From: an uncultured Armatimonadetes bacterium
GTDB taxonomy: Bacteria > Armatimonadota > Hebobacteria > Hebobacterales > Hebobacteraceae
Assembly: GCA_963716175.1 (NCBI GenBank)
Contig: OY970296.1
Location: 3,232,001 to 3,296,000 of the forward strand
Length of the DNA stretch: 64,000 nt
Reading direction: 5' to 3'
Shown: positions 34,040 through 50,029 of the stretch, piece after piece
Position numbering within the stretch: the stretch's first letter is position 1
How the letters are laid out: the number at the start of each line of letters is the position of its first letter
Made by a program: the position numbers and the translations under genes
The notes under the pieces: model-generated
Told to the model about the DNA's origin: nothing
The model's database searches: none
The model's input: only the letters and a program-made list of their open reading frames with translations

Positions 34040-35674
34040 TTAGCGCATGCGCAGGAACATCTGGAAATCCTGAGGATTGCTTGCCATAGCCATGGCCGCC
34101 TGAGGAGTGACCTTGGCCTGGAGCACCAGGGCTTTGAGTGCCTGGTCGAGGGTCTGCATGCCGTCCCCTGCGCTGGATTGCAGCACTGAAGGCATCTGGT
34201 GGGTCTTCCCCTCCCGGATCAGGTTGCGAATGGCCGAGGTCGCCACCAGGACCTCCTGCGCGCACACCCGGCCCTTCCCATCGGCCAGCGGCAGCAGGGT
34301 CTGGCAGATAATGCCCTCCAACACGGTCGAGAGCTGCACCCGGATCTGCTCCTGCTGGTGGGGTGGGAACACATCCACGATCCGGTCCACCGTCTGCGCC
34401 GCGCTCGTGGTGTGGAGAGTGGCGAGCACCAGGTGGCCGGTCTCGGCCGCGGTGATCGCCGCGCTGATAGTCTCCAGGTCGCGCATCTCCCCGATCAGGA
34501 TCACGTCGGGATCCTGGCGCAGCACATGCCTCAGCGCGCTCGCGAAGGTCTTGGTGTCGCTTCCCACTTCCCGCTGGATGATGATGCACTTCTCATTGCG
34601 GTGAAGGAACTCGATGGGGTCCTCGACCGTGACCACATGGCAGCGGCGGGTGACGTTTATCTCTCGGATCATCGCCGCCAGGGTGGTGGACTTGCCGGAG
34701 CCAGTAGGGCCGGTCACCAGGACCAGGCCCCGGGGCCGGGAGCAGAAGGTCTTCAGCACATCGGGCATGCCCAGCCCGTCCAGGGAAGGAGGGTCAACTG
34801 GCACCGCCCGGAACACCGCCCCCAGCGTGCCTCGCTGTCTGTGGATGTTGACCCGGAAACGGGAATGCCCCGGAACGCTGTAGGCGAAGTCCAGCTCCCA
34901 GTTCTCCTCGAACTCGGTGATCTGTTCGTCAATCAGGATGGCGTAGATCAGCTCGTGCACCTTGCGCGGGCTCAACTTCTGGGCGTTGATGGGCACCAGC
35001 TCGCCGTCAATGCGGAGCGTGGGAGCAGTGCCCGCGCCCAGGTGAAGATCGGAGGCGCGCCGTTTCATCACCTGCCGGAGGAGGTCGTCCACATGCATCA
35101 CCTCCTCCGCCTCCGCGCCCGAGGTCGCGGTCCCGGGGCTGGTACGGCGATCCTCGCCGGCCCCTGCCGCGGGCCCCCTCAGCTCTCGGGAGAGCTGGCC
35201 GTAGAAGCGATCAATGGCGGTGCGGACATCGCGCTCAGTGGCTACCATTCGCTCCAGATGCATGCCGGTGCGAGCCTGGATGAGATCGCAGGCCAGGCCG
35301 TCCAGGGGGTTGACCATGGCGAGGTGCAGCGTGGTGTCCACCTGAGACACGGGCACCACGGCGAAGCGCCGCGCCATGGACTCCGGCAGCGCCCGGATGG
35401 CATCCAGGCTGGCCGCGGCCTTGGCCAGGTCCAGCAATCTCAGCCCCAGGCTCTTGCTGATCGCCTGGGCCATATCCTCCGGCGAGATCGCCCCCAGCTC
35501 TACCAGTACGCTCCCCAGCCAGCGGCCTTGGGCCTGATGGATTGCCTGTGCCCGCTCCAGCATGTGCACGTCAACTATCCCCTCGGCCTGCAGGATCTCG
35601 GCCAGCTGTTCGCTGTCCGACCTGGCCTGCACTTTGCCCGCGCCCGGGCTGTGGTCCATTCGAATTGGTGTCAT
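34040..35674 (-). CDS. PilT-type retraction ATPase with N-terminal MshEN/T2SSE_N domain
   Basis: C-terminal PilT core (ASDLHL, GPTGSGKST, EDPIEF, QREVG, TLHT, AIRNLIRE, GMQT); N-terminal LAEIL..EGIV...WLGSVLVELG...LAMVNP. Confidence 0.88.
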   Translation of the reverse strand: MTPIRMDHSPGAGKVQARSDSEQLAEILQAEGIVDVHMLERAQAIHQAQGRWLGSVLVELGAISPEDMAQAISKSLGLRLLDLAKAAASLDAIRALPESMARRFAVVPVSQVDTTLHLAMVNPLDGLACDLIQARTGMHLERMVATERDVRTAIDRFYGQLSRELRGPAAGAGEDRRTSPGTATSGAEAEEVMHVDDLLRQVMKRRASDLHLGAGTAPTLRIDGELVPINAQKLSPRKVHELIYAILIDEQITEFEENWELDFAYSVPGHSRFRVNIHRQRGTLGAVFRAVPVDPPSLDGLGMPDVLKTFCSRPRGLVLVTGPTGSGKSTTLAAMIREINVTRRCHVVTVEDPIEFLHRNEKCIIIQREVGSDTKTFASALRHVLRQDPDVILIGEMRDLETISAAITAAETGHLVLATLHTTSAAQTVDRIVDVFPPHQQEQIRVQLSTVLEGIICQTLLPLADGKGRVCAQEVLVATSAIRNLIREGKTHQMPSVLQSSAGDGMQTLDQALKALVLQAKVTPQAAMAMASNPQDFQMFLRMR

Positions 35675-35698: not shown

Positions 35699-37105
35699 CT
35701 AGCCACGGTCGCTGGCGGCGGTCTTTGCTGGTTCACCCATCGCGCGTCGCTCCGGGCTGCGCAGTGGCAGCGCCTCCGCCGGCTCCTCCCGCAGCACCGC
35801 CTCCAGCGCCTCCACCACGGCCGGGTCGTAATAGCTGCCGGCATGAATGCGGAAGTGCGCCAGCGCCTCCTGTTCGTTCAACACCGATCCGTAAGGCCGC
35901 TCTGAGATCATGGCATCGAAGCAGTCGGCGACCTTGACGATCCGCGCCAGCAGTGGAGTCTGCTCCCCGGTCAGGCCGTCCGGATAGCCTCGGCCGTCCC
36001 AGCTCTCGTGGTGGTTGCGCACCAGGGCCAGCGCCTCTCGGCTCGGCTTGAGGGGCCGGATGATGCGGTCCCCGATCACGCAGTGCTGGCGGCAGATCGC
36101 TCTCTCCTCCTCTGTGAGCACCCCTCGCTTCAGCAGGATCTCATCCCGGACGCCGATTTTCCCCACGTCGTGCAGGGGAGCGAACACCTCAATATCCCGG
36201 ATCGCCGTCTCCGGCAGCCCCATCTGTTCGGCGACCCTTACCGCCAGGGTGGCGACCCGCTGGCTGTGGGTGGCAGCGTAGTTATCTCTCGCGTCCAGCG
36301 ACCGGACCAGCGAGCGCACTGTCGCCAGGTAGCTTTCCCTCAGCTCGGCGTGAAGCTGAGCGCTCTCCAGCGCCTTGGCTGTCATGTTGGCAAGAGTGGT
36401 CAGGAGGTTGAGATCCCCCGGCGTGAACTGTGACCTCCCGTCTTCGCGGTGCGCCGCCAGCACCCCCGCCAGTCCGTTCTTGAGCCGAAACGGAGCCGAG
36501 ATCAGATCGGCGCGCTCGTTCCAGGCCTGCACCTGGGCCTCCACATCGGTCACGGAATCGCCGCCCGTGATCAGGGGCCCGGGCCAGACCTCCTGGGGGT
36601 TGGGCGCGGTCGCTTCGTGAGGCTCGCAGTAGCTGTGCGACTGGCGGGCATACACCGGGTGACCGCTCCTGGCGTCAACCAGCACCAGGTAGGAACGGGC
36701 CGCCTGCACGCTGTCCGCCAGCGCGTCTACCGCGCGCCGCGAGATATTGTCAACATCCAGCGAACCGGCCAGCTGAGCGCTAACGGTGCACAGGCCGTCG
36801 AGCTGACGCAGCCGCTCGTCCAGGTTGTCCACCGTCGCCCGCAGCTTGCTCACCAGGCGCCGGTTGGTGTACCGCTGCTCCCGCTCCCGGCCCACCAGAT
36901 AGAGAATGGCGCACAGCACCAGCAGCCCGAGCCCGGTGACCAGCACGACTTCATCGTAGGTCATGCCCAGGGTCAGCGGCTGGTAGCCGAACGCCAGCAC
37001 CACCGCCAACCAACTGGCGAAGATCACGATGAAGCTGATCGCCGTCCAGAGGATCTCCTTCCTCTTCTCATCCGGGTCCGAGCAGTCGCGAAAGAGCCGA
37101 TGCAA
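35699..37105 (-). CDS. Membrane-anchored GAF + HD-GYP phosphodiesterase
   Basis: Two TMs, GAF region, HSQRV, LHDVGK, HHESWDGRGYPDGL, ADCFDAM...RPY; TTG start after GAGGAGG. Confidence 0.9.
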   Translation of the reverse strand: MHRLFRDCSDPDEKRKEILWTAISFIVIFASWLAVVLAFGYQPLTLGMTYDEVVLVTGLGLLVLCAILYLVGREREQRYTNRRLVSKLRATVDNLDERLRQLDGLCTVSAQLAGSLDVDNISRRAVDALADSVQAARSYLVLVDARSGHPVYARQSHSYCEPHEATAPNPQEVWPGPLITGGDSVTDVEAQVQAWNERADLISAPFRLKNGLAGVLAAHREDGRSQFTPGDLNLLTTLANMTAKALESAQLHAELRESYLATVRSLVRSLDARDNYAATHSQRVATLAVRVAEQMGLPETAIRDIEVFAPLHDVGKIGVRDEILLKRGVLTEEERAICRQHCVIGDRIIRPLKPSREALALVRNHHESWDGRGYPDGLTGEQTPLLARIVKVADCFDAMISERPYGSVLNEQEALAHFRIHAGSYYDPAVVEALEAVLREEPAEALPLRSPERRAMGEPAKTAASDRG

Positions 37106-37133
37106 GCCATTCCCTCCTCGCCCACGGGGCGGG

Positions 37134-37559
37134 CTACAGGTAGTGCTCCTCCCACGAGATCTGCGCCCACTGCGTCTTGCCCTTCCCGGGGATGGGCAAC
37201 CCGCCCCACACATCCCGGTATCTGACCGTGATGCCACCATTGGTGGTCACCACGTCGGCGCAGATGGCGCCGTAGATCTCGGCGTTACCGCTGATCTTGA
37301 CCGACTTGGCGGCGATCAGAGCGAGTGAGTCAGTGCTGGGATTGCCGGCGGTCACATTCCCGGTGATCTTGGTATTGCCAGTGGCCACGATCAACACATT
37401 GGTGTTGGTATAGTTGAAGATCACCGCCATCAGCTCAATCAGGCTGAAGCTCGGCGAGCGCCGTCTGAGTCGCCTGCTGTTGGAAAAGGTTGGTCTTTCC
37501 AGACCGCCCCGCGCGTGTGCTCCCACGCTCGTCTCACTCTCCAGGCTCTGCCAGCTCAC
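37134..37559 (-). pseudogene. Chimeric remnant: prepilin N-terminus fused to C-terminus of PilX-like beta-helix protein
   Basis: RRRSPS-FSLIELMAVI abruptly joined to FNYTNTNVLIVATGNTKITGN...IYGAI...ISWEE; hydrophobic helix cut after 10 residues. Confidence 0.6.
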
Positions 37560-37632
37560 TCCCGGGGCTAGGCGCTTCGCGCCGCCGTGGCGGTTGGCAG
37601 GGCCGAGCTAGCCACTGGCAGTCCAGGTTACG

Positions 37633-37684
37633 CGGGGATAGCAGAAGTCGCCTGTTGGTGAGGAGGTTCCTTCTGCTATCCCCG
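37633..37684. repeat. Perfect 15-bp inverted repeat
   Basis: CGGGGATAGCAGAAG-22 nt-CTTCTGCTATCCCCG. Confidence 0.8.
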
Positions 37685-37759
37685 ACAAGTCATCTGCTGG
37701 GACGTATGCTGGGAGACGGCAAGGCTCCGGGAGCCGCCCGGAGCCGCCGTCAGCCCACA

Positions 37760-38203
37760 TTACCAGGTGCTGTAAGCGTCACCGTTGATCGCGGTCAGCG
37801 TGGAACCGCTGCTCACGTCGCCGCTGGTAGCAGTGTAGCTCCACGTGGTTGAGCTAGTAGTGAAAGGATCCGCGGGCAGGTTGCCATCCGGGGTGCGGAG
37901 ATACGGTCCCTGCCAGCCGTTGACGTCCAACTGGATGCTGTTGCCACCGTTGCTGCCATCCGCCGGTCTGGTCTGCAGGTCGACGATCGCGGCCGGGTAG
38001 TCGCCGCAGTCAGCCTCGAACTGCTGGATCGCATTCCGGATCTGATGCAGGTCACCCCGCAGGGTCGCTTCCTTCGCCTTGCGGCCTGCGCCGAGCAACC
38101 GCGGAATGACGATCAGGGCCAAGATGGCGATCACCACGATCACGATCAACATCTCGATCAGGGTGAAGCCCTTGTGCTTCCGATTCACCATTCGACTCAT
38201 CAT
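37760..38203 (-). CDS. Major type IV pilin (GspG-like globular domain)
   Basis: RBS AAGGAGGTG; KG-FTLIEMLIVIVVIAILA; WQGPYL...PADPF; followed by hairpin 37715-37751. Confidence 0.85.
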   Translation of the reverse strand: MMSRMVNRKHKGFTLIEMLIVIVVIAILALIVIPRLLGAGRKAKEATLRGDLHQIRNAIQQFEADCGDYPAAIVDLQTRPADGSNGGNSIQLDVNGWQGPYLRTPDGNLPADPFTTSSTTWSYTATSGDVSSGSTLTAINGDAYSTW

Positions 38204-38311
38204 CGTCTTTCTTCACCTCCTTGGCACATGTGCCGAGTTGCTTTCATTCCTCAGGAGTGATCCCCCGCCGGGACGCGGACCGGCCCTCGTGGGGGTCCTG
38301 GCTTCTGAGAG

Positions 38312-38322
38312 CTTATTCCACA
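38312..38322 (-). promoter_or_regulatory. Candidate alternative-sigma promoter motif TGTGGAATAAG (copy 1)
   Basis: Exact 11-mer also at 51740-51750; lies between terminator and pilin gene. Confidence 0.4.
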
Positions 38323-38344
38323 GCCGGGGGCGGGATTTGAGATG

Positions 38345-38380
38345 AGAAACACCCCGCCCTCCAGGGAACGGGGTGCTTTC
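38345..38380 (-). terminator. Intrinsic terminator after sigma-GGDEF gene
   Basis: GCACCCCGTTC-CCTG-GAGGGCGGGGTGT-TTCT hairpin with short T-rich tail. Confidence 0.6.
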
Positions 38381-38408: not shown

Positions 38409-39833
38409 CTAGGCCTGGCGGGCCGGGGCCGGCGCCGGGCCATTGCCTCTCGCCGCCGGCTGGGACCTGAGATAGCGGTTTCCACCCTCCCGGTAGGCCT
38501 CCTGGAGCGCTTCTTCCGCGGCCGACAGCAGTTCCTCCGGAGATCGGCCATTGGCCGGAAAGGCCCCGATCCCGATACTCACGGTGACCGGCTGATCTGC
38601 GGCGGCGAGCCGTGCGGAGATGGTCTTCAGGATGCGCTCGGCCAGCACTGCCGCCTCCCGGCCGGTGTGGGGGAGGAGCAGGCCGAAGCGCGTCCCCCGC
38701 AGCCGCGCCACCAGGTCAATGCTGCGCACGTTGGCCCGCAGCAGCCGTGCCAGGGCCCCCAGCTCTGCTCCTGCCAGATCGCCCTGGTCGGCCGCCAGCA
38801 GCAGGATCGAGAACTGCTGAGGATAGCGACGCGCGCGCTCCACCTCTTGGTTCAGCCGCTCCAGGAAGTACTGCTCGGTGGGCAACTTCGTGGTGGGGTC
38901 GGCCGGCGCCGGGCGCAAGGACAGAGAGTAAGCCCCAGAGGCGGCCCGGGTGTGCTCGGAGACCGGCTGCGAGTGAGCCCTCCCGTCGTCCTGGGCCTGC
39001 GCCTCCACGGCCTTCTTCAGCTTCGCCACCGCCCCCCGCAGCAGGTAGGAAGCGTAGTTGACCGAGATGCCCAGGCGGCGCGCGATCTCCGTCTGGTTCA
39101 GGTCCAGGTAGTAGAAATGGTGGACCACCTTCCGCTCCAGGGTCTTCAGCCTGGACATGGCGTCTCGCAGGAAGATCCGGTCCTCGATGGGCAGGTGCAC
39201 TTCGTCGCTGCGCTCGGCGCTCAGCTTCTCCGGATCCACGGCGGGGGCCTGGCTGTCATCATCGCTGCTCGCCGCGTCCAGCGAAGCCACCTTGCTGCGC
39301 TCCCGTGCGTCTAGCATCCGCCGGGTGCTCTCCTGGGTGGTGCCCACCCGCTCCGCAATCTCGGCCAGCGTGGGGGACCGATCCAGCTCCTGGGTGAGCG
39401 CGTCCGTGGCCTTCACGATCTTGGTGGTCAGCTCCTGCACCCAGGCCGGCTGCTTGATCAGCTTTCCCTTGTCTCTCAGGTAATGCCTGATCTGGCCTTC
39501 CACCAGGTGAGTGGCATAGGTCGAGAACTGCACCCCCCGGTCTGGGTCATAGAGGTCAACCGCGTTGATCAGGCCCATGGCACCTTCCTGGAGCAAATCC
39601 TCGTGGGACTCGCCCAGGCCGGCAAACTTGCGGGCCACCGTCTGCACCAGGTAGAGGTGCTGCGAGATCAGCTTATCCCTCAGCACTCGATCGCCCCTGC
39701 CCCGGTAGGCGCGGACGAGGGTGTCCACCTCCTCCCGATCCGGCGCCTTGCGCCTGGCTGGGGTCCCGGCGTTCTTCTTGCGGCTCGCGCCTGCGGCCGA
39801 GCCGCTCGACTTCAGCCGCTGTTGCTTTGTCAT
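38409..39833 (-). CDS. SigB/SigF-type sigma factor fused to degenerate GGDEF domain
   Basis: Regions 2-4 (EDLLQEGAMGLINAVDLYDPDRGVQFSTYA, GQIRHYLRD, PTLAEIA, NQTEIARRLGIS), then DPTTKLP...ERARRY...RSIDLVARLRGTRF...VTVSIG...A..EGGNR. Confidence 0.92.
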   Translation of the reverse strand: MTKQQRLKSSGSAAGASRKKNAGTPARRKAPDREEVDTLVRAYRGRGDRVLRDKLISQHLYLVQTVARKFAGLGESHEDLLQEGAMGLINAVDLYDPDRGVQFSTYATHLVEGQIRHYLRDKGKLIKQPAWVQELTTKIVKATDALTQELDRSPTLAEIAERVGTTQESTRRMLDARERSKVASLDAASSDDDSQAPAVDPEKLSAERSDEVHLPIEDRIFLRDAMSRLKTLERKVVHHFYYLDLNQTEIARRLGISVNYASYLLRGAVAKLKKAVEAQAQDDGRAHSQPVSEHTRAASGAYSLSLRPAPADPTTKLPTEQYFLERLNQEVERARRYPQQFSILLLAADQGDLAGAELGALARLLRANVRSIDLVARLRGTRFGLLLPHTGREAAVLAERILKTISARLAAADQPVTVSIGIGAFPANGRSPEELLSAAEEALQEAYREGGNRYLRSQPAARGNGPAPAPARQA

Positions 39834-39933: not shown

Positions 39934-41148
39934 CTACTTGCCCAGGGATCCGACCAGGGAGTAGATGGGAGAGATCACGGAGACCGCGATGAAGCCCACG
40001 ATCAAGCCCAGGCCCACGATCATCAGGGGCTCGATCAGGGAAGTGAGGGCCTTGAGCGTGGCGTCCACCTCTTCGTCGTAGAAGTTCGCCACCTTCACCA
40101 GCATCTGGTCCAGCCGGCCCGTCTCTTCTCCCACCGCGATCATCTGCGTCACCATCACCGGGAATACCTTGCTGCCGAACAGGGGGGTGCTGATCTTGTC
40201 GCCCTCTTTGATGCTGGTGCGGGCGCGGGCGACGGTTTCAGAGACCACACGGTTCCCCGCGGTGTCGGCGACAATCTCCAGCGCCCGCAGCACTGGCACG
40301 CCGCTGCTGATCAGGGTGCCGAAGGTGCGGGCGAAGCGCGACACCGCCGTCTTCAGCACTAGCTCCCCGAAGACTGGCACACGCAGCTTCGCAGCGTCAA
40401 TGGCGAAGCGGCCCTTCTCCGTGCGCGCCGCCATCCGGACGAAGATGAAGCTGCCCACCACCACCACGATGGCGATATACCAGTACTGGCGCACATAGGT
40501 GGAGCAGTTCAGCATCAGCCTGGTGGTGAGCGGCAGTTGCAGGCCCATGGTCTCGAAGATACCCTTGAACTTGGGCAGCACGAAGAAGAGCAGGCCGATC
40601 AGCATCAGCATCGCGAACACGAACACCACCGCCGGATAGGTCATCGCCGACTTGATCTTGTTGCGCGTCTCCTGCTCCTTCTCCAGGAAGGTGGCGAGCC
40701 GATCCAGCACCGTGTCCAGGATACCTCCCGCCTCTGCCGATCGGATCATGTTCACGTAGAGCGAGGTGAAGATGCGAGGGTGCTTCTGCAGAGCTTCGGT
40801 GAGGCTGGTCCCGCCCGCCACATCGCGCTTCACTGTGCTGATCACTTCTTTCAGCCGGGGGTTGCGGCTCTGCTTCTCCAAAATGTCCAGACATTTTACC
40901 ACGCTCAGCCCGGCGTCTATCATGGTGGCGAACTGGCGGCTGAACACCACCAGGTCCCGCAGCTTCACCCGCTGCATCGCGGAGAGCATGCCCTGAAGGC
41001 CGGCCCCGCCTCGTGTCTGACGAATGCTGAGCACATGATAGCGGAGGTCCGACAGCTTGGCCCGCACCAGCTCCAGGCTCTCCGCCTCCAGGGTGCCGGC
41101 CACCGTGCGCCCGCTCTGGTCCATGGCGCTGTAGCGGTAAGTTGGCAT
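39934..41148 (-). CDS. pilC: Type IV pilus platform protein PilC
   Basis: FSRQFATMIDAG, AEAGGILD, SAMTYP, GEETGRLD, LIEP. Confidence 0.93.
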   Translation of the reverse strand: MPTYRYSAMDQSGRTVAGTLEAESLELVRAKLSDLRYHVLSIRQTRGGAGLQGMLSAMQRVKLRDLVVFSRQFATMIDAGLSVVKCLDILEKQSRNPRLKEVISTVKRDVAGGTSLTEALQKHPRIFTSLYVNMIRSAEAGGILDTVLDRLATFLEKEQETRNKIKSAMTYPAVVFVFAMLMLIGLLFFVLPKFKGIFETMGLQLPLTTRLMLNCSTYVRQYWYIAIVVVVGSFIFVRMAARTEKGRFAIDAAKLRVPVFGELVLKTAVSRFARTFGTLISSGVPVLRALEIVADTAGNRVVSETVARARTSIKEGDKISTPLFGSKVFPVMVTQMIAVGEETGRLDQMLVKVANFYDEEVDATLKALTSLIEPLMIVGLGLIVGFIAVSVISPIYSLVGSLGK

Positions 41149-41380
41149 TAGCTCTCTCCTTGCTCCCAGCTCCGGACTTGCGCCCGTCGCCCCCTCTGGT
41201 ACGATGGCACGCCTCACCGCGTTCGTGGCGGTGCGCTTGCCTGGGGGCAGGTCCTCTCTCCCCGCCTCTGGCGCGAGGCGGGCCGCCGCCGTTCGCCTGG
41301 CGCGGCCTCAGGTGCCGCTTTCCGTCACCGGCCCCGGGGCGCTGCGCCGCGCTTATCTATTCCGTGTTTTCCACCTCACT

Positions 41381-42466
41381 TCACAGGGTGGACAGCCATC
41401 GCCCGTAGTTATCGGCGTCTATCGCCCGGGAGGCGGCCTCCTCCGGCGTCACCTGGCCCTGCCGCACCAGCACCGCTAGCGCGCGGTCCATGGTCTGCAT
41501 TCCCAGATCGCCGCCAGTCTCTATCAGGGCGTAGATCTGATGCGTCTTTCCCTCCCGGATCAGATTCCGGATGCCCGCGGTCACGATCATCACTTCCACC
41601 GCCGGGATGCGACCAGTCTGTCCCGCCCGTGGCAGCAGTTGCTGCGCGACCACCGCCTCCAGCGTGCTGGACAGGAGCACCCTGACCTGCTCCTGGTGGT
41701 GGGGCGGGAACACATCCACGATCCGGTGCACGCTCTGGGGCGCGTTGCGAGTGTGCAGCGTCCCCAGCACCAGGTGCCCGGTTTCGGCGATCTTGAGCGC
41801 GGCATCTATGGTCTCCAGATCGCGCATCTCCCCGATCAGCACCACGTTCGGGTCCTCCCGCACTACTGCCCTCAGCGCCATCGCTATGTCGTAAGTGTCG
41901 CTGCCCAGTTCCCGCTGGTTGACCATGGCCTTGCGGTGCTGGTGCAGGTACTCGATCGGGTCCTCAATCGTCATGATGTGGCAGCTGCGGAACTGGTTGA
42001 TGTAGTCAATGATGGCGGCCAGGGTGGTGGATTTGCCGCTTCCCGCGGGCCCGGTCACCAGGATCAGGCCGCTGGTGCGGCTGGTCAGCGTCCGCACCGC
42101 GCCCGGCAGGCACAGCTCCTCGAAAGTGGGGATGCGGCGGGGAATCAGGCGGAAGGCCGCCCCCACTGACCCCCGCTGCATGTAGACATTCACGCGGAAG
42201 CGCCCCACCTTGCTGATGCCGTGGGAGAAGTCCAGCTCGTGCTTGCTCTCGAAGGCCTGGATCTGATGGTCGTTGAGGATGCTGTAGATCAGCCGTTGGC
42301 ACTCCACGGGCGTGAGCTGGTTGAAGTTCATGGGGCTGAGGCGGCCGTCAACCCGGAGCAGAGGAGGCAGGCCGGCGGTGATGTGCAAGTCCGAGGCGCG
42401 CCGCTCCACTGCCATCGTGAGCAGCTCGTCGAGGCCATACTCCTCGACCTTGAGGGTCCGGGGCAT
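41381..42466 (-). CDS. pilT: Type IV pilus retraction ATPase PilT
   Basis: ASDLHI, GPAGSGKST, EDPIEY, NQRELG, GIRNLIREGK, GMQT. Confidence 0.93.
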   Translation of the reverse strand: MPRTLKVEEYGLDELLTMAVERRASDLHITAGLPPLLRVDGRLSPMNFNQLTPVECQRLIYSILNDHQIQAFESKHELDFSHGISKVGRFRVNVYMQRGSVGAAFRLIPRRIPTFEELCLPGAVRTLTSRTSGLILVTGPAGSGKSTTLAAIIDYINQFRSCHIMTIEDPIEYLHQHRKAMVNQRELGSDTYDIAMALRAVVREDPNVVLIGEMRDLETIDAALKIAETGHLVLGTLHTRNAPQSVHRIVDVFPPHHQEQVRVLLSSTLEAVVAQQLLPRAGQTGRIPAVEVMIVTAGIRNLIREGKTHQIYALIETGGDLGMQTMDRALAVLVRQGQVTPEEAASRAIDADNYGRWLSTL

Positions 42467-42467
42467 C

Positions 42468-44183
42468 TTAGCCAATGTAGACAACGCGCAGTGCCTCCTC
42501 CATCGTCGTTATCCCCTCCAGGGTCTTCTGCATCGCATCCTGCTGAAGGGTGATCATGCCGCTCTCCAGGGCATGTTGGCGGATCTCGTGGGTGGGCGCC
42601 TTGCGGAGGATGAACTCGCGGATGGTGTCAGTGATCGGCATCAGCTCGAAGATGCCGATTCGCCCCCGGTAGCCAGTGTGGCGGCAGCGCTCGCACCCCC
42701 GTCCCCGGTAGAAGGTGACGGAGTCGGTGTCCACCGCCAGGTTGAGCCGCCGAAAGGCCTCCACCGGGGGAGCATAGGATTCCTTACACTCGGCGCAGAT
42801 CACCCGCACCAACCGCTGGGCGAGCACCCCGATCAGCGAGGACGCGATCAGGAAGGGCTCGACCCCCATCTCGATCATGCGGGCCACCGCGGTGGGAGCG
42901 TCATTGGTATGAAGAGTGCTGAACACCAGGTGCCCCGTCAGCGCGGCCTCGGTGGCGATCATCGCCGTCTCCGAGTCCCGCATCTCTCCCACCAGGATGA
43001 TATCCGGGTCCTGCCGGAGGAAGGTGCGCAGGGCGGTGGCAAAGGTCACCCCGGCGCGCTCATTCACCGCGGTCTGGGTGAGGCCGGCCAGCTGGTATTC
43101 CACCGGATCCTCGATGGTGAGGATGTTCTTCTCGGGGCTGTTGATGGAGTTCAGGACGGAATAGAGCGTGGTGGACTTGCCGGACCCGGTGGGCCCGGTG
43201 ACGGCGACAATGCCATAGCTGCGGTTGACCAGGTTCTCGAAATCCTCCATCATGGAGGTGGGGATGCCGAGCTGGTTGAGCCCGACCTGGATCCCGCGCT
43301 TGTCCAGGATGCGCATCACCACCTTCTCCCCATTCACCCCGGGATTGGTGGAGACTCGGAAATCAAACTCCCGGCCCGCTACCCGCAGTGAGATGCGGCC
43401 ATCCTGGGGCGCGCGTTTCTCCGCGATGTCCAGGTCGGCCATCACCTTAATGCGGGAGACCAGCGGAGCCTGCACCTTCTTGGGCACGGTCATCACATCA
43501 TGGAGAATGCCGTCAATGCGAAGGCGGATGCGGACCCGATTTACCTCCGGCTGGATGTGGATGTCGCTGGTCTTGTCCCGGATCGCCTGGCGGATGATGA
43601 GGTTGGTGAGCCGCACCACCGGCGCGTCGTCCAGCATCTCCCGCAGTTGATCGGCGCTTACCTCTTCCTCTCGCTTCGCCGTCTCGTACTGGATCTCGCC
43701 CCCGTCCTGGCCTATCTCCTCGTTCATCTCCTGCAGCGCGGCGCCGATCTCTTCCCGGGCCGACAGCGATTGTCCCAGCACCGCGTTGATGTCATCCGCG
43801 GTGGCGATCACGGACTCGATGTCGGTGCCGGCGACCAGGCGCATCTGGTCCAGGGCGTAGACGTCCAGGGGGTTGACCATGGCCACCACCAGGCGGGGTC
43901 CGTTCCGGTCTATGGGCACCGCCTTCCAGCGTTGCAGCAGGTGGTGAGGGATCAGCTTCAGCAGGTCGCGGTCGAACTGGCGCTCGCCCAGGTCCACGAA
44001 GGGAATGCCCCACTGCCGCCCCAGGATCTTGGCCTTATCCTTCTCCGTGATCACGCCCATGTTCACCAGCACTTGGGCGAGGGGCTCGCGGGTCTCCTTC
44101 TGCACCTCCAGCGCTTGCCTGAGCTGCTCGGAGGAGACCTTCGTCACTTCCTTTACGATGTCTGCGACTGTCCGCGTTTCCAT
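42468..44183 (-). CDS. pilB: Type IV pilus assembly ATPase PilB
   Basis: N-terminal T2SSE_N, DAPVVRL, SDIHIQP, PQDGR, GPTGSGKST, RQDPDIILVGEMRD, CAEC..CERC. Confidence 0.93.
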   Translation of the reverse strand: METRTVADIVKEVTKVSSEQLRQALEVQKETREPLAQVLVNMGVITEKDKAKILGRQWGIPFVDLGERQFDRDLLKLIPHHLLQRWKAVPIDRNGPRLVVAMVNPLDVYALDQMRLVAGTDIESVIATADDINAVLGQSLSAREEIGAALQEMNEEIGQDGGEIQYETAKREEEVSADQLREMLDDAPVVRLTNLIIRQAIRDKTSDIHIQPEVNRVRIRLRIDGILHDVMTVPKKVQAPLVSRIKVMADLDIAEKRAPQDGRISLRVAGREFDFRVSTNPGVNGEKVVMRILDKRGIQVGLNQLGIPTSMMEDFENLVNRSYGIVAVTGPTGSGKSTTLYSVLNSINSPEKNILTIEDPVEYQLAGLTQTAVNERAGVTFATALRTFLRQDPDIILVGEMRDSETAMIATEAALTGHLVFSTLHTNDAPTAVARMIEMGVEPFLIASSLIGVLAQRLVRVICAECKESYAPPVEAFRRLNLAVDTDSVTFYRGRGCERCRHTGYRGRIGIFELMPITDTIREFILRKAPTHEIRQHALESGMITLQQDAMQKTLEGITTMEEALRVVYIG

Positions 44184-44239
44184 GTCCCGGTTTAGGCTCT
44201 TTCCATATTTGCGCGCTTCTGGGGGAAGGCGCCTCACAG

Positions 44240-44274
44240 ACAAGAAGGGGGCCTGCCCGGTGGGGCAGGCCCCC
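44240..44274 (-). terminator. Intrinsic terminator between pilQ and pilB
   Basis: GGGGCCTGCCC-CACC-GGGCAGGCCCC-CTTCTTGT. Confidence 0.6.
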
Positions 44275-44306
44275 AAGCCGGCGCCATGATCCGCTATGTC
44301 GTCCTA

Positions 44307-44400: not shown

Positions 44401-46278
44401 CTAGGACTCGACTATCGTCGGGGTCACGAAGACCATGATCTCAGTGTGCTGTGGGCGCTTCTCCACGTGCTTGAACAGCTCCCCAGCAATCGGCAGGTTC
44501 CCCAGGAACGGCACCTTCTTGATCGTCACCTGCTCCTGGTCGGTCACCAGTCCCGCCAGCACCGCGGTCTCGCCGCTCTTGATCCGCACTGTGGTGATCA
44601 CCGTGCGCGTGGCGACCACGGGCAGTTGCGCCGCGGTCGTGCCCACCAGCGAGGAAACCGTCGGCGAGATGGTCATTGTGATCTCGTTGTTCTCATTCAC
44701 CCTCGGGTTGACCGACAGCAGCACGCCGACATCAATCGTTCTGGTGTCGGTGATGATCCCACCGGTGGTAGCGGCCGCAATCGCCACCGTGTAGTAGATG
44801 GTCTGGCCGGTGTGCAGCGATGTCTGTCGGCCGTCCAGCGTGGTGACACTCGGGTTGGACAGGATGCGGGCGCGGCCCTTCTGCTCCAACGCGCGAAGCG
44901 CCGCGTCCAGCTGGAAATCGGTTCGCAGGATCCGGCCGACATTCAGCGGTCTCATCACGGTGGCGTCGGGCTTGCCCGTGTCGGGGTCGATCTCCAGCGG
45001 CTCGCCGATGATGAAGGGCACGCCGGTCTCGCCCAGGCCCCGTCCCGTGGACTGGCCCCAGTCAATGCCGATGCGGGAGACGTCATCCCGGTTGATCTCG
45101 GTCACCATGGCGGTGATGTGCACCTGCCTGGGGGCCTTGTCGAGCTGCTCGATCAGCTTCAGCCCGCGCTCGACGGTGTAGGGCGCGCCGGACAGGATCA
45201 GGGCCGTGATCGGCGCCGCCTCTACCTGCACGCCGGCAGTGCCTCCGGCGCCGCCAGCCCCGCCCCCGCCCCCGCCGCCACCGCCCGCGTACTGCGGAGC
45301 GGCCAGCATCGCGGCGGTGCCGCCGGCTCCGCCGGTGGCTCTCTGCACCACAGGCGTGAACGAGCGCGGCGCCAGGGTCACGGTGAGGTCAGGCACCAGC
45401 GCCATCACGGTCTGCTGCAGCTCCGTGGGGCTGGTGTACTTCACGTAGTAAATGGCCTGCGTCGCCTGCGCCGGCGCTGGCGCTGCATCCGAGGCCGAGA
45501 CCAGCGAGCGCACGGACTGCCACTGCTGGTCGGTGGCCGTGATCAGCAGGCTGTTCTCCTGCGGCCCGAGCTGCACTTTCACCTCCGGCACCGCAGCCGA
45601 GATCAGCTCGGCCATCTGGTCCGCCTTCAGATACCGCACCGGCACCACTTCCGTGGTGGGCGGTGAGGGCGGGGCCGGCACGTCCATCTCCGCCAGCGCC
45701 CGCTCTGCCTTCGCCAGGGAGGACTCAGTCCCCAGCAGCAGGATCGAGCGCACCCCCTTCTGCGTAGACACGGTGACATCGGGGGTCAGCTTGGAGAGCG
45801 CCTGTTGGGCGTATTCTGGCGAGATGTGCTGCAGCACCACCACCGCCGACCGCAGCTCGGAGACGCGCATGGCGCGCACCTCTTCGGGCGTGCCCACCAC
45901 ATAGGCCGCCTCCACCCAGGCGTAGTCCAGTCCGTTGAGTCTGGTGACGATGTTCATGGCCTGTTCAATGGTGACATTGCGCAGGCGTAGCGTGGCCTTC
46001 CCCTTCACGCTGCCGCTCACCGCGATGTTGACTCCACTCTGCGTGGAGAGGGCCTGGAACACGTCTACGATGTCGGCATCCACAAACTCGAGCGTGAATC
46101 TGGCCCACGATGGGGCTCCCACTGGGGTTCCCCGGCCGCCGGTGTAGGCCAGGCCCGTCGCGCGCGCCGCTTGGGCCCCCGGCTTGGCATGTCCGTTGGC
46201 CCAGGCGACACTTGCCGCCAGCAGCCAGACCAATGCAATGGCCAGGCTGCTCCATACCGCATGCTTTCTGCGAGTCAT
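44401..46278 (-). CDS. pilQ: Type IV pilus secretin PilQ
   Basis: Signal peptide, STN/N domains, QVHITAMVTE, ILSNPSV, KVPFLGNLPIAGELF, MVFVTP. Confidence 0.88.
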   Translation of the reverse strand: MTRRKHAVWSSLAIALVWLLAASVAWANGHAKPGAQAARATGLAYTGGRGTPVGAPSWARFTLEFVDADIVDVFQALSTQSGVNIAVSGSVKGKATLRLRNVTIEQAMNIVTRLNGLDYAWVEAAYVVGTPEEVRAMRVSELRSAVVVLQHISPEYAQQALSKLTPDVTVSTQKGVRSILLLGTESSLAKAERALAEMDVPAPPSPPTTEVVPVRYLKADQMAELISAAVPEVKVQLGPQENSLLITATDQQWQSVRSLVSASDAAPAPAQATQAIYYVKYTSPTELQQTVMALVPDLTVTLAPRSFTPVVQRATGGAGGTAAMLAAPQYAGGGGGGGGGAGGAGGTAGVQVEAAPITALILSGAPYTVERGLKLIEQLDKAPRQVHITAMVTEINRDDVSRIGIDWGQSTGRGLGETGVPFIIGEPLEIDPDTGKPDATVMRPLNVGRILRTDFQLDAALRALEQKGRARILSNPSVTTLDGRQTSLHTGQTIYYTVAIAAATTGGIITDTRTIDVGVLLSVNPRVNENNEITMTISPTVSSLVGTTAAQLPVVATRTVITTVRIKSGETAVLAGLVTDQEQVTIKKVPFLGNLPIAGELFKHVEKRPQHTEIMVFVTPTIVES

Positions 46279-46282
46279 GGCG

Positions 46283-46864
46283 CTACTGCCTCCCTCCCAT
46301 CCGTAGGATGACCTTCCCTTCTTTGCCTGTTAGCACTACTTCTTTCGAGCCGACCGACTGCACCCGGTAGCGATCCCCAATGCGGTCGCCGGCCTTCACG
46401 TAGTAACGCTGGTCCCCCTCTCGAATCACCGCCATCGCCTGTCGCCCGGCCACGATCCCGGCCAGGATCAGCCCGGTCGCGGGGGCCTCGCCGCCTTTGG
46501 CCGCCGCGGTGCTGCTCACCCTGGGTGGCATCGCCGCCGGGGCTGGGGATGCCGCGGGCGCGCTCTCTCCGGCCGCGGCCGGAGGCCGCTTTGCGGGCTC
46601 CCCGGCGGCCTGAGAAGCGGCGACGCTGGGCCCGGCGAACGGGTTGCGGGGGGTGCCGCTGGTCCCGGGCGCGGCTGCCAGCGGCAGGCCTGGCTTGGCC
46701 GCCTCCCCCGCGCCCGCTTTCCCCGCCTGCGGCTTGGCCGGAGAGGCGGCCGCGGGCTTTGCCGGGGGCACGGGCGGCGGCCTGTGGCGGAAGGTGTAGA
46801 CGGCTACCGCCAGCGCCATCGCCGCCAGCACCAGCAGGAGAACATCCTTGCTACGACGTCCCAT
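46283..46864 (-). CDS. PilP-like protein
   Basis: N-terminal TM, Pro/Ala linker, RNPF motif, LAGIV...AVI...YYVKAGDRIG; between pilO and pilQ. Confidence 0.7.
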   Translation of the reverse strand: MGRRSKDVLLLVLAAMALAVAVYTFRHRPPPVPPAKPAAASPAKPQAGKAGAGEAAKPGLPLAAAPGTSGTPRNPFAGPSVAASQAAGEPAKRPPAAAGESAPAASPAPAAMPPRVSSTAAAKGGEAPATGLILAGIVAGRQAMAVIREGDQRYYVKAGDRIGDRYRVQSVGSKEVVLTGKEGKVILRMGGRQ

Positions 46865-47534
46865 CTTTCCCCCCTTTCCCGATCACCGCGGTCAGCTCCA
46901 TGGTCGCCATCAGCTCCGGCGACTGCATCAGTGAGCCCGTCTGCTTGGGCGAGAAGGCGATATCATTGACCGCGATCATCTTGGGGAACTGCTGCAGCTC
47001 CTTCAGGAAATCCAGGATCGTGGTGTAGGTGCCCTCGATCCTCAACTCGATGGTCGAGTAATCATAGGGGAGCTTGCTCTTGTCCACCTGCTTCGCGTCC
47101 TTGGCATTGGGCCCGGAGGGCGCGTTCGGTTGCTCCTTCACCACCTCCCCGGTCTCGTTGTTCACCGTCACCGCTGCGGTCTTGCCGCTGGGCGCCTTCG
47201 CCTTGGGTCGGATCATCACAATCCGGTTACTGGTCTGCGTGGCCAGCCGCTCGATCTGGCGCAGGAAAGTGGGCATGTAGGAGCTGTCCGGCAAGGCCGG
47301 CTCCAGCACCGAGAGCCGCGCCTGCAGCTTGGCGTACTTGGCCTCCAGCTCCGGCTGCTTGGTGAGCTTCTCTCGCACCTGCGTCAACTGCTGGTCCTTG
47401 CCGCTCAGCTCCTTCGCCAACCGCGTCAGCTCGCTGCCCTTGGCCCGGTAGAGACTCACTCCCAGGCCGGTCAGGCAGACCGCGGCGATGCCCAGCAGCG
47501 CGTAAATCACTTTGCGATCGGCGCCTACGCTCAT
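46851..47534 (-). CDS. pilO: Type IV pilus protein PilO
   Basis: TM + coiled coil + LP...MPTFL...GTY..ILDFL; operon order. Confidence 0.85.
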   Translation of the reverse strand: MSVGADRKVIYALLGIAAVCLTGLGVSLYRAKGSELTRLAKELSGKDQQLTQVREKLTKQPELEAKYAKLQARLSVLEPALPDSSYMPTFLRQIERLATQTSNRIVMIRPKAKAPSGKTAAVTVNNETGEVVKEQPNAPSGPNAKDAKQVDKSKLPYDYSTIELRIEGTYTTILDFLKELQQFPKMIAVNDIAFSPKQTGSLMQSPELMATMELTAVIGKGGKDGTS

Positions 47535-48124
47535 TTCAACCCGCTCCCGATGATCTGGCTCAAGGGCACTGTGATCTCGAATTGGATGACACTGCGTCCT
47601 TGCTGGGTCACGTTCATCTGGGTGAAGCCGAGGGCCGGGGCCTTGCTCCAGGCCGGCTTATCCAGGTTCAGCATGAACTCCCCGATGTCGCTCTGGTTGA
47701 AGGCCGAGCCCCGGAGCGAGAGCACCTGCTCCTTCTCCGCGCGATGCGAGCCCAACTGGGAGAGCCAGACATTCCCTGCCGTCGGCACGCAGGCCCCGAC
47801 GTCCCGCAGGATCTGGATCCACGCCTGCTCGCTGTCGTGCACCTTCTCCAGCAGATCCACCCGCGGCTCCAGCTTCCCGATATTGCCGTCCAGGAACTGG
47901 ATGCGGCTCACCGCTTCCGCCAGCGTGGGATCGCTCAGCTTCGCCTCCACCTCCGCGATGCGACCCTGGGTCAGCTTGGTGGCCGCGGTCAGCCGCGCGT
48001 AGAGCAACGCCACCGCCAGGAACAGCACGATCAGGGAGTACACCGCGCAGCGCAGGATGGTGATGGCGCGCTGCTTCTGCCGCCTGCGGCCGGCTATGAG
48101 ATTGATGTCGAGCACGGTGGTCAT
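47531..48124 (-). CDS. pilN: Type IV pilus protein PilN
   Basis: DINLI motif, TM, coiled coil, VWL...LRGSA. Confidence 0.88.
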   Translation of the reverse strand: MTTVLDINLIAGRRRQKQRAITILRCAVYSLIVLFLAVALLYARLTAATKLTQGRIAEVEAKLSDPTLAEAVSRIQFLDGNIGKLEPRVDLLEKVHDSEQAWIQILRDVGACVPTAGNVWLSQLGSHRAEKEQVLSLRGSAFNQSDIGEFMLNLDKPAWSKAPALGFTQMNVTQQGRSVIQFEITVPLSQIIGSGLK

Positions 48125-49290
48125 GGGCTTTTCTCCCCGGGATGGGTGCGCTTCTGGCGAGAGAGCAAGAGCTCTCGCAACGCCAGCCCGGCGGCCACCA
48201 GCAGGGTGGGCGCGTGCGACTGCAGGTATTCCTGGTTGACGCCCCGCGCCTGAAGCCGTTCAGGCCCGAACACGTTCAGCACTCCCACCGGCACCCCGAG
48301 CTGGGCCTGGAAGTACTCCTCGATGCGGGGGAGCTTGGCGCTCCCGCCGCTCAGCAGGATCTGGTTGACCCCCAGCTCCCCGCTGCCCGCGTCCGGTGAC
48401 TGCTGCTGGTAGTCGTGGAAGGCCAGCGAGCGGCGCACCTCGCGGATCAACTCGTCCAGCAGCGGCTCGATCGCTCGGCTCGCCTGCTGTGCCGCCGGGT
48501 CCAGGGTGGCCCGCTCTTCCTCGCTCAGCACCACCTGAGTGGCACTCTCCTTCAGCCGGTTCGCCTCCTCCAGGTCCACGTCCAGAGCATTCTTGATGGC
48601 ATCGGTGAAGGCATTGCCCGCGATGGGGATCATGCGGCTGAGCACGAACTCAGCATCCTTCACCAAGGTGATCTCGGTGTAGGCCGCGCCGATGCCCACC
48701 AGCGCGATGGTCTCGCCGTTGCTCTGGGTCTGGCCATTGCCGGCCACCAGGCCCCGCAGCGCCGCGAAGGGTTGGATCTCCACGGCCAGTGGCTCCAGCC
48801 CCGCCAGCTCCAGTGTCTCCACTTGGCTGTCCACCATGTCCCGGGGGGCGGCCACCAGCAGCACCTTCATCTGGGCATTGGTCCCCGGCGCCGCGGGCCG
48901 ATCCACCACCTGGAACTCCACCACGCTGTCCTCCACCGGAAACGAGATGTAGTTCCTCGCCTCCCACTGGATCGAGCGCCGGAGCTGCCGGTCGGACATG
49001 GCGGGCAGGGGCACCTCTCGCACTACCACGGTGGGCCCGGCAATGCCGGCCACCGCGGTGGCGGCATCAATCTGCAGCGCCTCCAGCAGCGCACGAATGG
49101 ACTGGGCCACCGCCAGCGGGTCCACCACCACCCCGCCCTTGATGGCATTGGCGGGCGTAGGAGCGCTGCCGGCCTTGTGCAGGGCGAGCCCGTCTCGGCC
49201 CTCCTGCAATTGCACCAGCTTGATGGCATTGCTCCCTACATCAAGCCCGATGGCTGTGTTCCCTGATCCGAACTTCGAGAATAGCCTCAT
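48121..49290 (-). CDS. pilM: Type IV pilus protein PilM
   Basis: IGLDVGS, EARNYISF, VLLVAA, LSGGSAKL, AAGLALR. Confidence 0.92.
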   Translation of the reverse strand: MRLFSKFGSGNTAIGLDVGSNAIKLVQLQEGRDGLALHKAGSAPTPANAIKGGVVVDPLAVAQSIRALLEALQIDAATAVAGIAGPTVVVREVPLPAMSDRQLRRSIQWEARNYISFPVEDSVVEFQVVDRPAAPGTNAQMKVLLVAAPRDMVDSQVETLELAGLEPLAVEIQPFAALRGLVAGNGQTQSNGETIALVGIGAAYTEITLVKDAEFVLSRMIPIAGNAFTDAIKNALDVDLEEANRLKESATQVVLSEEERATLDPAAQQASRAIEPLLDELIREVRRSLAFHDYQQQSPDAGSGELGVNQILLSGGSAKLPRIEEYFQAQLGVPVGVLNVFGPERLQARGVNQEYLQSHAPTLLVAAGLALRELLLSRQKRTHPGEKSP

Positions 49291-49321: not shown

Positions 49322-50011
49322 TCAGCTCACCTTCACCCCGCCCTCCCTTTCCGGAGAGCGTTCGTCCGCTCCCGGCCGCGCCGGGGTGAGATAGGAGCTG
49401 CGCCCGAAGTCGATCTCGCCTCGCGCCGCCGGCAGCTTTCCTCCGCTGATGATGACGTCCCCCGTCTGCCCGGTCGGGTCCCACTCCTCCACGATCCCCT
49501 CCGCCAGCAACTCGGTCACCCCGTGCAGCGCCTCCACTGGCTCTATCCCCGACTCCCGGATGATGGTGGCGACATTGCGCCGGGCATCCACCAGCCGCAG
49601 CACCGACTGGGCCTGCGGCGAGAGCGACTCATAGCGCTCGTTCACCGCAAACGCCCGCTGCCGCAGCACCACGTGCATGTTGGGCATCTCCTCCTCGACC
49701 CGCTGCCACTCGTCGAAGCGCTTCATCCCCTCCAGGATCAGCGCCTCCGTGCTCTGCGTGATCTCCCTCGCCACCGGCTCCTCGCTGCGCTCGAAGGTGA
49801 AGTCCCCGTTGCGCCATCCCAGCACGCGGTAGACCACCTCCGGCCCTCGCTCCCGCCGGGAGATGGCGCGCACCACTTCCCCGTTCACGACGAACAAGTC
49901 CACTCGCTCCGTGCCCCGCCACACCTGCAGCCGGCCGCTCTTGTGGCTCACGTTTAGTAGCTGCACCAGCTCCGCGAAGCTGATATCTTCGAAGCTGCCG
50001 GTAAGTGCCAT
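49322..50011 (-). CDS. DUF4388 (PatA_N-like) domain protein
   Basis: LTGSF...ELVQLL...KSGRL...GEVVRA...W..GDFTF...LILEG.KRFDEW, plus winged-helix-like tail. Confidence 0.85.
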   Translation of the reverse strand: MALTGSFEDISFAELVQLLNVSHKSGRLQVWRGTERVDLFVVNGEVVRAISRRERGPEVVYRVLGWRNGDFTFERSEEPVAREITQSTEALILEGMKRFDEWQRVEEEMPNMHVVLRQRAFAVNERYESLSPQAQSVLRLVDARRNVATIIRESGIEPVEALHGVTELLAEGIVEEWDPTGQTGDVIISGGKLPAARGEIDFGRSSYLTPARPGADERSPEREGGVKVS

Positions 50012-50029
50012 CCTGCCGTCCCTAGCGCC

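Follow-up and report, generated by a model that had tools for sequence, protein, structure and literature searches.

A SigB/F-like sigma factor fused to a degenerate GGDEF domain in a cluster of type IV pilus genes from Armatimonadota: a candidate sigma factor gated by cyclic di-GMP

We analyzed a stretch of 64,000 nucleotides (nt) from an uncultured Armatimonadetes bacterium (assembly GCA_963716175.1, contig OY970296.1, positions 3,232,001 to 3,296,000; hereafter "the window", whose coordinates are used unless genome coordinates are specified), focusing on a gene in which a sigma factor is joined to a GGDEF domain, and on the type IV pilus genes that surround it. The gene lies on the minus strand at 38409–39833, starts with ATG and encodes a protein of 474 amino acids (aa), as judged from the listing of open reading frames (ORFs), the translation and the Pfam matches. 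A preliminary description of this DNA had placed it between pilC and the pilin gene, and this is where it lies: pilC, encoding a platform protein of the T2SSF family (39934–41217, minus strand; Pfam E-value 1.1e-65), is found directly upstream, and a type IV pilin gene of 147 aa (37760–38203, minus strand; Pfam N_methyl and T2SSG) is found downstream, both in the same orientation as the fusion gene. The same description had read the encoded protein as a sigma factor that senses cyclic di-GMP (c-di-GMP) by itself and switches pilus transcription, a reading that is supported, within the limits of sequence comparison, by the evidence set out below.

All four Pfam domains of the fusion protein exceed their curated cut-offs. 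Sigma region 2 occupies aa 55–123 (39465–39671, minus strand, as are all features of the gene given here; PF04542, E-value 8.6e-17), region 3 occupies aa 134–194 (39252–39434; PF04539, E-value 7.7e-13) and region 4 occupies aa 225–274 (39012–39161; PF04545, E-value 8.4e-11). After a linker, delimited at aa 275–310 (38904–39011) from the AlphaFold2 model, a degenerate GGDEF domain spans aa 311–453 (38475–38903; PF00990, E-value 6.3e-23, with a score of 81.7 bits against a cut-off of 23.8), which was recognized by Pfam, by Foldseek and in HMMER alignments. These boundaries agree with the earlier estimate of complete regions 2 to 4 up to about residue 275, followed by GGDEF from about residue 312. 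As for the assignment of the sigma part to a SigB/F-like type, the best NCBIfam model is indeed the SigB/F/G model TIGR02980, with a score of 180.3 bits that stays under the cut-off of 234.35. The second-best model is PRK07408, a cyanobacterial-type SigF, and the FliA_WhiG model TIGR02479 reaches 110 bits, below its cut-off of 189.6.

Alignment with HMMER to four solved GGDEF domains places R370-S-I-D373 of the fusion protein (38715–38726) on the RxxD motif of the I-site and, five residues further on, R379-G-T-R-F383 (38685–38699) on the GGDEF motif of the A-site. The D-x-FKxxND segment that contacts substrate and metal in the solved domains corresponds to an 8-residue gap. A third conserved arginine, R400 (38634–38636), aligns with the arginine of the "aERIr" segment of the solved domains; we take it to be the equivalent of R390 in PleD, and together with R370 and D373 it would form a putative c-di-GMP pocket. 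With both the A-site motif and the substrate loop lacking, the fusion protein can be ruled out as an active cyclase; its C-terminal domain is predicted to be a GGDEF fold in which catalysis is lost and only the I-site is retained. Both the loss of the catalytic elements around RGTRF and the canonical five-residue spacing of RxxD had been proposed beforehand, and both hold. In an AlphaFold2 model built on an alignment of 80 sequences (mean predicted local distance difference test score, pLDDT, 84.7), the sigma part and the C-terminal domain mostly score above 90; a helix at residues 258–286 extends region 4 into the linker, and residues 289–301, with pLDDT below 50, are predicted to be disordered. 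When this model was searched with Foldseek, chains of SigB and sigma-S were returned for the sigma part, and GGDEF structures for the C-terminal domain (3ign, template modelling (TM) score 0.81 on the target, root-mean-square deviation 2.4).

Nothing that we found suggests that the fusion arose through misassembly or a false indel, or that the gene is a pseudogene in decay, and we reject these explanations as next to impossible. More than 110 of the 120 best-matching database clusters listed share the combination of sigma regions with GGDEF, at identities down to 46% (Pfam), and among 151 sampled Armatimonadota genomes, 116 contain a match to the fusion at E-values of at most 1e-40, which in at least 92 of them spans the sigma part to at least residue 400. 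Moreover, Logan contigs from two other DNA studies cross the junction between region 4 and GGDEF without a gap (X2 record 6, 38662–39160; X3 record 21, 38513–39376), thereby confirming the fusion in independent sequence, and a contig from an RNA library (X20 record 15, 38861–39121) also crosses it gap-free. No indel within the gene was reported in any of the four runs.

Two larger samples also bear on the spread of the architecture. A search of 1.84 billion representatives at 50% identity returned, among its top 150 matches, 67 full fusions, 59 plain sigma factors and 25 fragments or other architectures, the classes being assigned by criteria based on hidden Markov models. A pattern scan covered one genome per species for 185,579 species, and 80 loci were kept from it; the fused matches among these are labelled as Armatimonadota lineages (Chthonomonadales, Fimbriimonadales, Armatimonadales, Capsulimonadaceae and Abditibacteriales), as a bare "bacterium" or, in the case of two contigs from metagenome-assembled genomes (MAGs), as Actinomycet*. 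A tree computed from the sigma regions alone placed all 67 fused rows on one side of a branch with a support of 98 in the Shimodaira–Hasegawa-like approximate likelihood-ratio test, apart from 37 plain SigB/F-like rows. The fused side also includes 22 rows classed as plain; several of these sit on short branches next to fused proteins, and their gene calls may be truncated. The fusion protein belongs to a clade of its own, and a single ancient fusion event is the simplest reading of the tree.

Conservation of the I-site and of the A-site was counted in samples of relatives that had not been chosen by hand. The alignment of the 120 closest database clusters is unselected, save that a duplicate of the query was taken out. 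All 120 of these clusters carry R370 and D373, R400 is an arginine in 119, and positions 379–382 of the A-site vary freely (S, G or R at 379; G, R or A at 380; A, T or S at 381). Among the 67 fused representatives at 50% identity, 61 have both R370 and D373; taken singly, D373 is found in 65, R370 in 61 (with histidine in 4) and R400 in 62, and GG[DE]EF is found in none of the 67. In other words, the columns of the sequence support the view that selection kept the I-site while the A-site drifted. The sigma part is likewise constrained: in alignment A1, a set of 80 hand-picked sequences with identities down to 28%, the residues D79, G87, T105, A107, R120, D121 and P129 are invariant, which fits a working sigma factor.

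The claim that RxxD is conserved among homologues held for close relatives and for most of the fused representatives, but not for one subclade. Six of the 67 representatives (P0134, P0137, P0153, P0155, P0157 and P0158), which group together in the tree, have HxxD or no RxxD, so that the I-site is not universal across the fusion family; this branch may be blind to c-di-GMP. R370 and D373 are the sole invariant columns of the C-terminal domain in A1, but this invariance is partly by construction, since the hand-picked subset omits 17 fused representatives, including all six without RxxD; the unbiased I-site counts are those from the 120 clusters and the 67 representatives. In addition, the AlphaFold2 model offers no confident packing of the domains against each other, because its predicted TM score is 0.49. 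As the RxxD-less subclade retains the fusion, a GGDEF domain can evidently persist in it without an I-site, and the C-terminal domain might instead be a module for dimerisation, docking or localisation, for instance one that anchors the sigma factor at the pilus platform or on a cyclase, with R370 and D373 retained for structure or for contacts with other proteins. The linkage of the fusion to pilC, which is wider than that to a downstream pilin (15 versus 7 of the 20 loci described below), would suit such a role. Against it, the residues that are invariant (R370, D373) or nearly so (R400, 119 of 120) in the close clusters are precisely the I-site residues of cyclases, and the catalytic motif, at a distance of only five residues, drifts freely. 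RxxD is absent from many active GGDEF domains, so the fold does not depend on it. We consider a non-sensory module improbable, and a c-di-GMP receptor the better account of the domain.

A related question is which ligand the pocket would hold. Foldseek lists PleD structures with (p)ppGpp beside c-di-GMP (9g85 and 9g86, by title), which indicates that GGDEF proteins can hold other guanine nucleotides, and the pocket of the fusion protein could in principle bind (p)ppGpp, GTP or another cyclic dinucleotide in place of c-di-GMP. However, the GTP substrate site is deleted, the retained residues are those of the I-site, and both the neighbourhood and the gene set described below are rich in c-di-GMP enzymes, making this a very unlikely explanation. 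The messenger itself is very probably made and degraded in the organism, since the DxD...FKxxND...GH segment is intact in six further GGDEF domains of the genome, whose A-sites are near-canonical (four read GGDEF, one AGDEF and one GGDEL), and at least three HD-GYP proteins are encoded.

The fusion gene is embedded in an extended set of pilus genes that are all on the minus strand. In the order of transcription, these comprise a 316-aa membrane protein, an MglA-like small GTPase and a DUF4388/PATAN protein (together 49322–51617; Pfam and synteny), pilM, pilN, pilO, a pilP-like gene and pilQ (44401–49290; Pfam), pilB with an MshEN domain (42468–44276; Pfam T2SSE and MshEN), pilT (41381–42484; Pfam T2SSE), pilC, the fusion gene, the pilin gene, a GAF-HD-GYP phosphodiesterase gene (35699–37240; Pfam) and a gene for an MshEN-PilT-like ATPase (34040–35674; Pfam). 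The HD-GYP protein, which the preliminary description had listed with MglA as a partner in the circuit, retains its HD, HHE and GYP motifs, and the MglA-like gene is syntenic, together with the PATAN and pilM–pilQ genes, in all five relatives examined. To see how far the arrangement reaches, we compared 17-kb stretches around the fusion in 20 genomes spread across the phylum. The pilC gene lies immediately upstream, in the same orientation, in 15 of the 20 loci; downstream, a pilin gene is found in 7 (all from the window's class), an HD-GYP gene in 5 and a PilT-like ATPase gene in 6. Seven pilC loci from five genomes without the fusion contained no sigma factor or degenerate GGDEF domain within 1.5 kb, and an ORF resembling a prepilin peptidase (judged by eye) follows pilC in 2 of the 7; these loci have no bearing on the promoter question.

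Several further features of the window were noted. Three secretion ATPases carry Pfam MshEN domains (42468–44276, 34040–35674 and 24502–26187), and a regular expression for a 24-residue MshEN c-di-GMP pattern had no full match in PilB, the PilT-like ATPase or GspE. The interval between the pilin gene and the GAF-HD-GYP gene (37134–37760) comprises only about 520 bp, with a 141-aa ORF containing a pilin-like "FSLIELMAV" segment; in relative G142 it measures about 2.6 kb and holds three ORFs, two with pilin-like N-termini, and the window's genome appears to have lost pilin-like ORFs here. At a distance of 8 kb from the type IV pilus genes there is a second, complete cluster of a pilus-like or type II secretion-like kind (14185–26187, minus strand), which encodes GspE with MshEN, GspF, pseudopilins H, J and K and a PilM-PilN fusion. 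Its secretin (14185–16843, minus strand) is split into overlapping ORFs in different frames, one with N0 and Secretin_N (15119–16843) and one with the Secretin C-domain (14185–15138), which may reflect a frameshift, a sequencing error or a genuine split. Elsewhere in the window are a tandem pair of paralogues of about 650 aa each with DUF6785 and DUF6784 (7377–11418, plus strand; E-value about 1e-137), and a gene for an MttB-family methyltransferase that adjoins genes for two radical-SAM proteins, one with a B12-binding domain (2205–7247).

Between the fusion gene and the pilin gene we found signals that would separate the two into different transcription units. A terminator-like hairpin with a T-run follows the stop codon of the fusion gene (38347–38374, minus strand; core 38352–38366, the wider span being read from the sequence), and equivalent hairpins are visible in relatives. 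It is followed by a candidate pilin promoter that is conserved in relatives (38313–38344, minus strand), consisting of CATCTCA (38338–38344), a 15-nt spacer and TGTGGAATAA (38313–38322), about 110 nt before the pilin start codon and 90 bp from the fusion stop codon. Both boxes are kept in all seven relatives with a downstream pilin, in which the surrounding intergenic DNA is not alignable; the variation is limited to one 14-nt spacer and base variants such as TATGGAATAA and CGTGGAAGAA. The TGTGGAATAA box does not resemble the -10 element of sigma-70 promoters, and a simple sigma-70 scan yielded no promoter at its site. The pilin gene is covered by contigs of two RNA libraries. As for control at the level of RNA, an Rfam scan of the window for a riboswitch before the pilin gene gave only a tRNA, and the pilin leader between the box and the start codon (38204–38312), taken as 113 nt, folds no better than shuffled sequence (z = -0.19).

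We then asked where else the downstream box occurs. Across the genome, TGTGGAATAA is found 19 times where 1.3 occurrences are expected from base composition, and the housekeeping-type TGnTATAAT is found 60 times where 12 are expected; the two look like two different promoter classes. When counted against the reversed control in the window's class, TGTGGAATAA was enriched, with, for example, 19 against 0 in the window's own genome (G000), 12 against 0 in G083 and 16 against 1 in G032. Known consensus sequences did not stand out in the genome: the sigma-28 consensus TAAA-N14-16-GCCGATAA is not enriched (0, 2 and 146 sites at 0, 1 and 2 mismatches versus 0, 4 and 153 for the reversed sequence), and the SigB consensus GTTTAA-N12-15-GGGTAT is no commoner than its reversed control. 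A second TGTGGAATAA box, found by sequence search and by comparison with relatives, stands ahead of the mglA-pilMNOPQ operon, 124 nt before its first gene (51741–51750, minus strand). A T[GA]TGGAATA[AT] box stands at the equivalent position before the operon in four of five relatives, and the fifth has TATGGAAGAA before pilM. The sequence CACGGAATAGA in the spacer between pilT and pilC was considered as a further box and set aside as too weak to claim.

Genome-wide, T[GA]TGGAATAA boxes precede 20 ORFs. Three belong to the pilus set (the pilin, a second pilin-like protein and the leader of the pilus operon, the 316-aa membrane protein, which is itself without a Pfam match), and three to the c-di-GMP set (GAF-GGDEF, GAF-HD-GYP and GGDEF-HD-GYP proteins), which is a striking share given that the genome has only 8 GGDEF matches. 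The signalling genes comprise a short paralogue of the sigma-GGDEF fusion, four histidine kinases and two response regulators; the other ORFs encode an SLH/PKD surface protein, a MotA/ExbB protein, a polysaccharide deacetylase and four proteins without a Pfam match.

From these elements we propose the following mechanism. The fusion would be a group-3 (SigB/F-like) sigma factor that carries a dead GGDEF domain as a built-in receptor for c-di-GMP, taking the place of a separate anti-sigma factor. Its gene would be the last of a pilB-pilT-pilC unit that ends at the terminator, after which the pilin gene follows with its own promoter, so that the sigma factor would be made together with the pilus motor. 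It would then guide RNA polymerase to the promoters of the pilin gene and of the mglA-pilMNOPQ operon, and would also drive a limited number of genes whose products are c-di-GMP enzymes or other signalling proteins, which would constitute feedback. Binding of c-di-GMP at R370, D373 and R400 would shift the tethered GGDEF domain relative to the sigma domains, or dimerise it, and so gate the activity of the sigma factor. In cyclases, I-site binding immobilises domains, and since RsiG-WhiG is an off-switch as well, we lean slightly towards inhibition of the sigma factor by high c-di-GMP, in which case the neighbouring GAF-HD-GYP phosphodiesterase would relieve it.

The preliminary description had noted that no anti-sigma factor is visible near the fusion, and a Pfam scan of 69 ORFs of the window, which included no search aimed at RsiG, turned up neither an anti-sigma nor a STAS domain. 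Profile searches of the closed 4.56-Mb genome identified a single STAS gene (3372073–3372366, genome coordinates) and a single strong RsbW-type match (HATPase_c_2; 3372423–3372788, genome coordinates; 98 bits, the next match having 40). These two genes lie immediately upstream of one for a plain SigB/F paralogue (3372979–3373698, genome coordinates), which is 40% identical to the fusion, passes the TIGR02980 cut-off with 287.1 bits, and lies 100 kb from it. As the sole STAS/RsbW pair adjoins this gene, the canonical partner-switching module belongs to the unfused paralogue, and none is associated with the fusion. Two further sigma genes are relevant to the box. One encodes a FliA/WhiG-family protein of 267 aa (TIGR02479, 245.7 bits against a cut-off of 189.6) and follows an ORF for a 101-aa membrane protein without a family match (3569711–3571169, genome coordinates, minus strand). 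The other is the short paralogue (971903–973045, genome coordinates, minus strand; 380 aa, with Pfam regions 2 and 4 only), whose C-terminal domain is too diverged for the Pfam GGDEF model and has R-V-L-D at the position of the I-site; TATGGAATAA lies 15 nt before its start codon, and its orthologues occur only in part of the family.

A number of observations weigh against the proposed mechanism. The genes with the -10 box share no -35 element, and the -35 of the pilus operon promoter differs from that of the pilin promoter; the "regulon" is consequently a lead only, resting on a 10-mer. Counts of TGTGGAATAA across the 151 genomes did not separate fusion-bearing from fusion-less lineages, and we did not use them as evidence. 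In 5 of the 20 loci, the fusion is not adjacent to pilC. Three RNA-library contigs from two libraries end at 38241–38248, where DNA contigs run on past. The box would predict a start site about 60 nt upstream of these ends, which are weak evidence either way; since all three RNA contigs are assembled and loose ends occur in two of them, they do not allow a transcription start to be called. The RsbW-like protein could also act on the fusion in trans. Finally, the sequence elsewhere in the genome that comes nearest to the pilin promoter is ATCTCA-N15-TATGGAATA, and it precedes the 101-aa ORF of the WhiG-like operon by about 310 nt, which could mean a sigma cascade or that the WhiG-like protein is a rival reader of the box.

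The latter possibility leads to an alternative in which the fusion does sense c-di-GMP, but the TGTGGAATAA pilus promoters are read by the plain SigB/F paralogue under RsbV/RsbW control or by the WhiG/FliA-like sigma factor, with the fusion controlling other genes or competing for core polymerase. The promoter copy before its operon and the clear family membership of the WhiG-like protein fit this alternative, and so does the content of the box gene set, as WhiG in Rubrobacter targets pilus and cyclase/phosphodiesterase genes, according to excerpts from PMC8325347. The canonical sigma-28 consensus not being enriched, the specificity of the WhiG-like protein may have shifted; the plain SigB/F paralogue is compatible with the box in its distribution and is a possible reader. 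On the other side, the fusion gene is physically tied to the promoter in all 7 loci with a downstream pilin, and no WhiG-like sigma was found at E-values of at most 1e-30 in 12 of the 31 genomes of the class, including G058, G083, G032 and G002, which are 92–96% complete and retain both the fusion and the promoter boxes; the short paralogue was not found in these four genomes either. The fusion is the alternative sigma factor that always travels with the pilin promoter, and the WhiG-like protein and the short paralogue are less likely readers. Taken together, we consider another reader for the pilus promoters unlikely, if the most credible of the alternatives, and judge that the fusion probably is a c-di-GMP-gated sigma factor for pilus genes. 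The wider proposition, that sigma factor, anti-sigma factor and sensor are united in one polypeptide as the first sigma factor gated directly by a second messenger, with a FliA-like checkpoint in pilus assembly and feedback on c-di-GMP enzymes, as a phylum-wide invention of Armatimonadota, seems to us evenly poised between right and wrong.

Known routes by which c-di-GMP reaches transcription pass through repressors, activators, riboswitches and one anti-sigma factor, RsiG. If the proposed mechanism is true, a sigma factor that carries a c-di-GMP receptor of its own would link the messenger to the choice of promoter by the shortest possible route, and would be a new mode of sigma regulation outside the extracytoplasmic function (ECF) group. 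The fusion is well suited to testing, being a small soluble protein with a pocket defined by three residues and a candidate promoter close by. Fusion-bearing relatives include sequences labelled as MAGs of genera with cultured species, namely Chthonomonas, Fimbriimonas, Armatimonas and Abditibacterium. The system would offer a first approach to the gene regulation and motility of Armatimonadota, a phylum that is widespread and little studied, and the conserved box an entry point for predicting a regulon that joins pili and c-di-GMP turnover.

Among known systems, the nearest functional analogue is RsiG-(c-di-GMP)-WhiG, which in Rubrobacter controls type IV pilus and cyclase/phosphodiesterase genes, as stated in the excerpted parts of PMC8325347. 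In both cases, c-di-GMP sets, or would set, the activity of an alternative sigma factor, and the Rubrobacter targets resemble the genes with a TGTGGAATAA box. There, however, a separate coiled-coil anti-sigma factor, RsiG, with E(X)3S(X)2R(X)3Q(X)3D motifs, sequesters a protein of the sigma-28 family, whereas here the putative receptor is a fused GGDEF fold, the sigma factor is SigB/F-like and no separate partner is evident nearby. For the C-terminal domain, the nearest structural analogues are PelD and PopA, degenerate GGDEF domains that serve as c-di-GMP receptors through their I-sites. These share with the fusion a GGDEF fold, a dead A-site and an RxxD five residues upstream of it, but they act in exopolysaccharide synthesis or in protein localisation and degradation, and neither belongs to a subunit of RNA polymerase.

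In architecture, the fusion comes nearest to ECF sigma factors with fused regulatory extensions: ECF41 sigma factors have a fused C-terminal regulatory domain (PMC3426412, in part), and OrbS is a sigma factor with an on-board iron sensor (PMC9023288, in part). As would be the case in the fusion, the regulatory input lies within the sigma polypeptide and there is no separate anti-sigma factor; unlike the fusion, which has region 3 and a putative second-messenger receptor fold, they consist of regions 2 and 4 without region 3, and their extensions are SnoaL-like, Cys-rich or of other kinds. The link between a group-3 sigma factor and pili also has a precedent, as SigF of Synechocystis PCC 6803 drives the major pilin gene pilA1, according to extracts from PMC2532724. 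It is a SigF-type protein that acts on an unusual pilin promoter with a GG-containing -12 box (GGTAA there, GGAATAA here), but it lacks a fused sensor domain, and TAGGC, its -32 element, does not resemble CATCTCA. Lastly, in the flagellar FliA checkpoint the anti-sigma factor FlgM is secreted. The likeness to the fusion, drawn from gene order only, is that a sigma factor encoded with the machinery would then switch on the gene of the filament subunit; the difference is that the checkpoint depends on a secreted anti-sigma factor and not on a second messenger.

A full-text literature search found no paper describing a sigma-GGDEF fusion, nor any using literal variants of "sigma-GGDEF", and the main texts of ECF classification papers contain no mention of "GGDEF", "diguanylate", "c-di-GMP" or "Armatimonadetes". 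Set beside these systems, the fusion combines things of known kinds, namely control of a sigma factor by c-di-GMP, receptors built on an I-site and sigma factors with fused sensors, and it is in this sense not categorically new.

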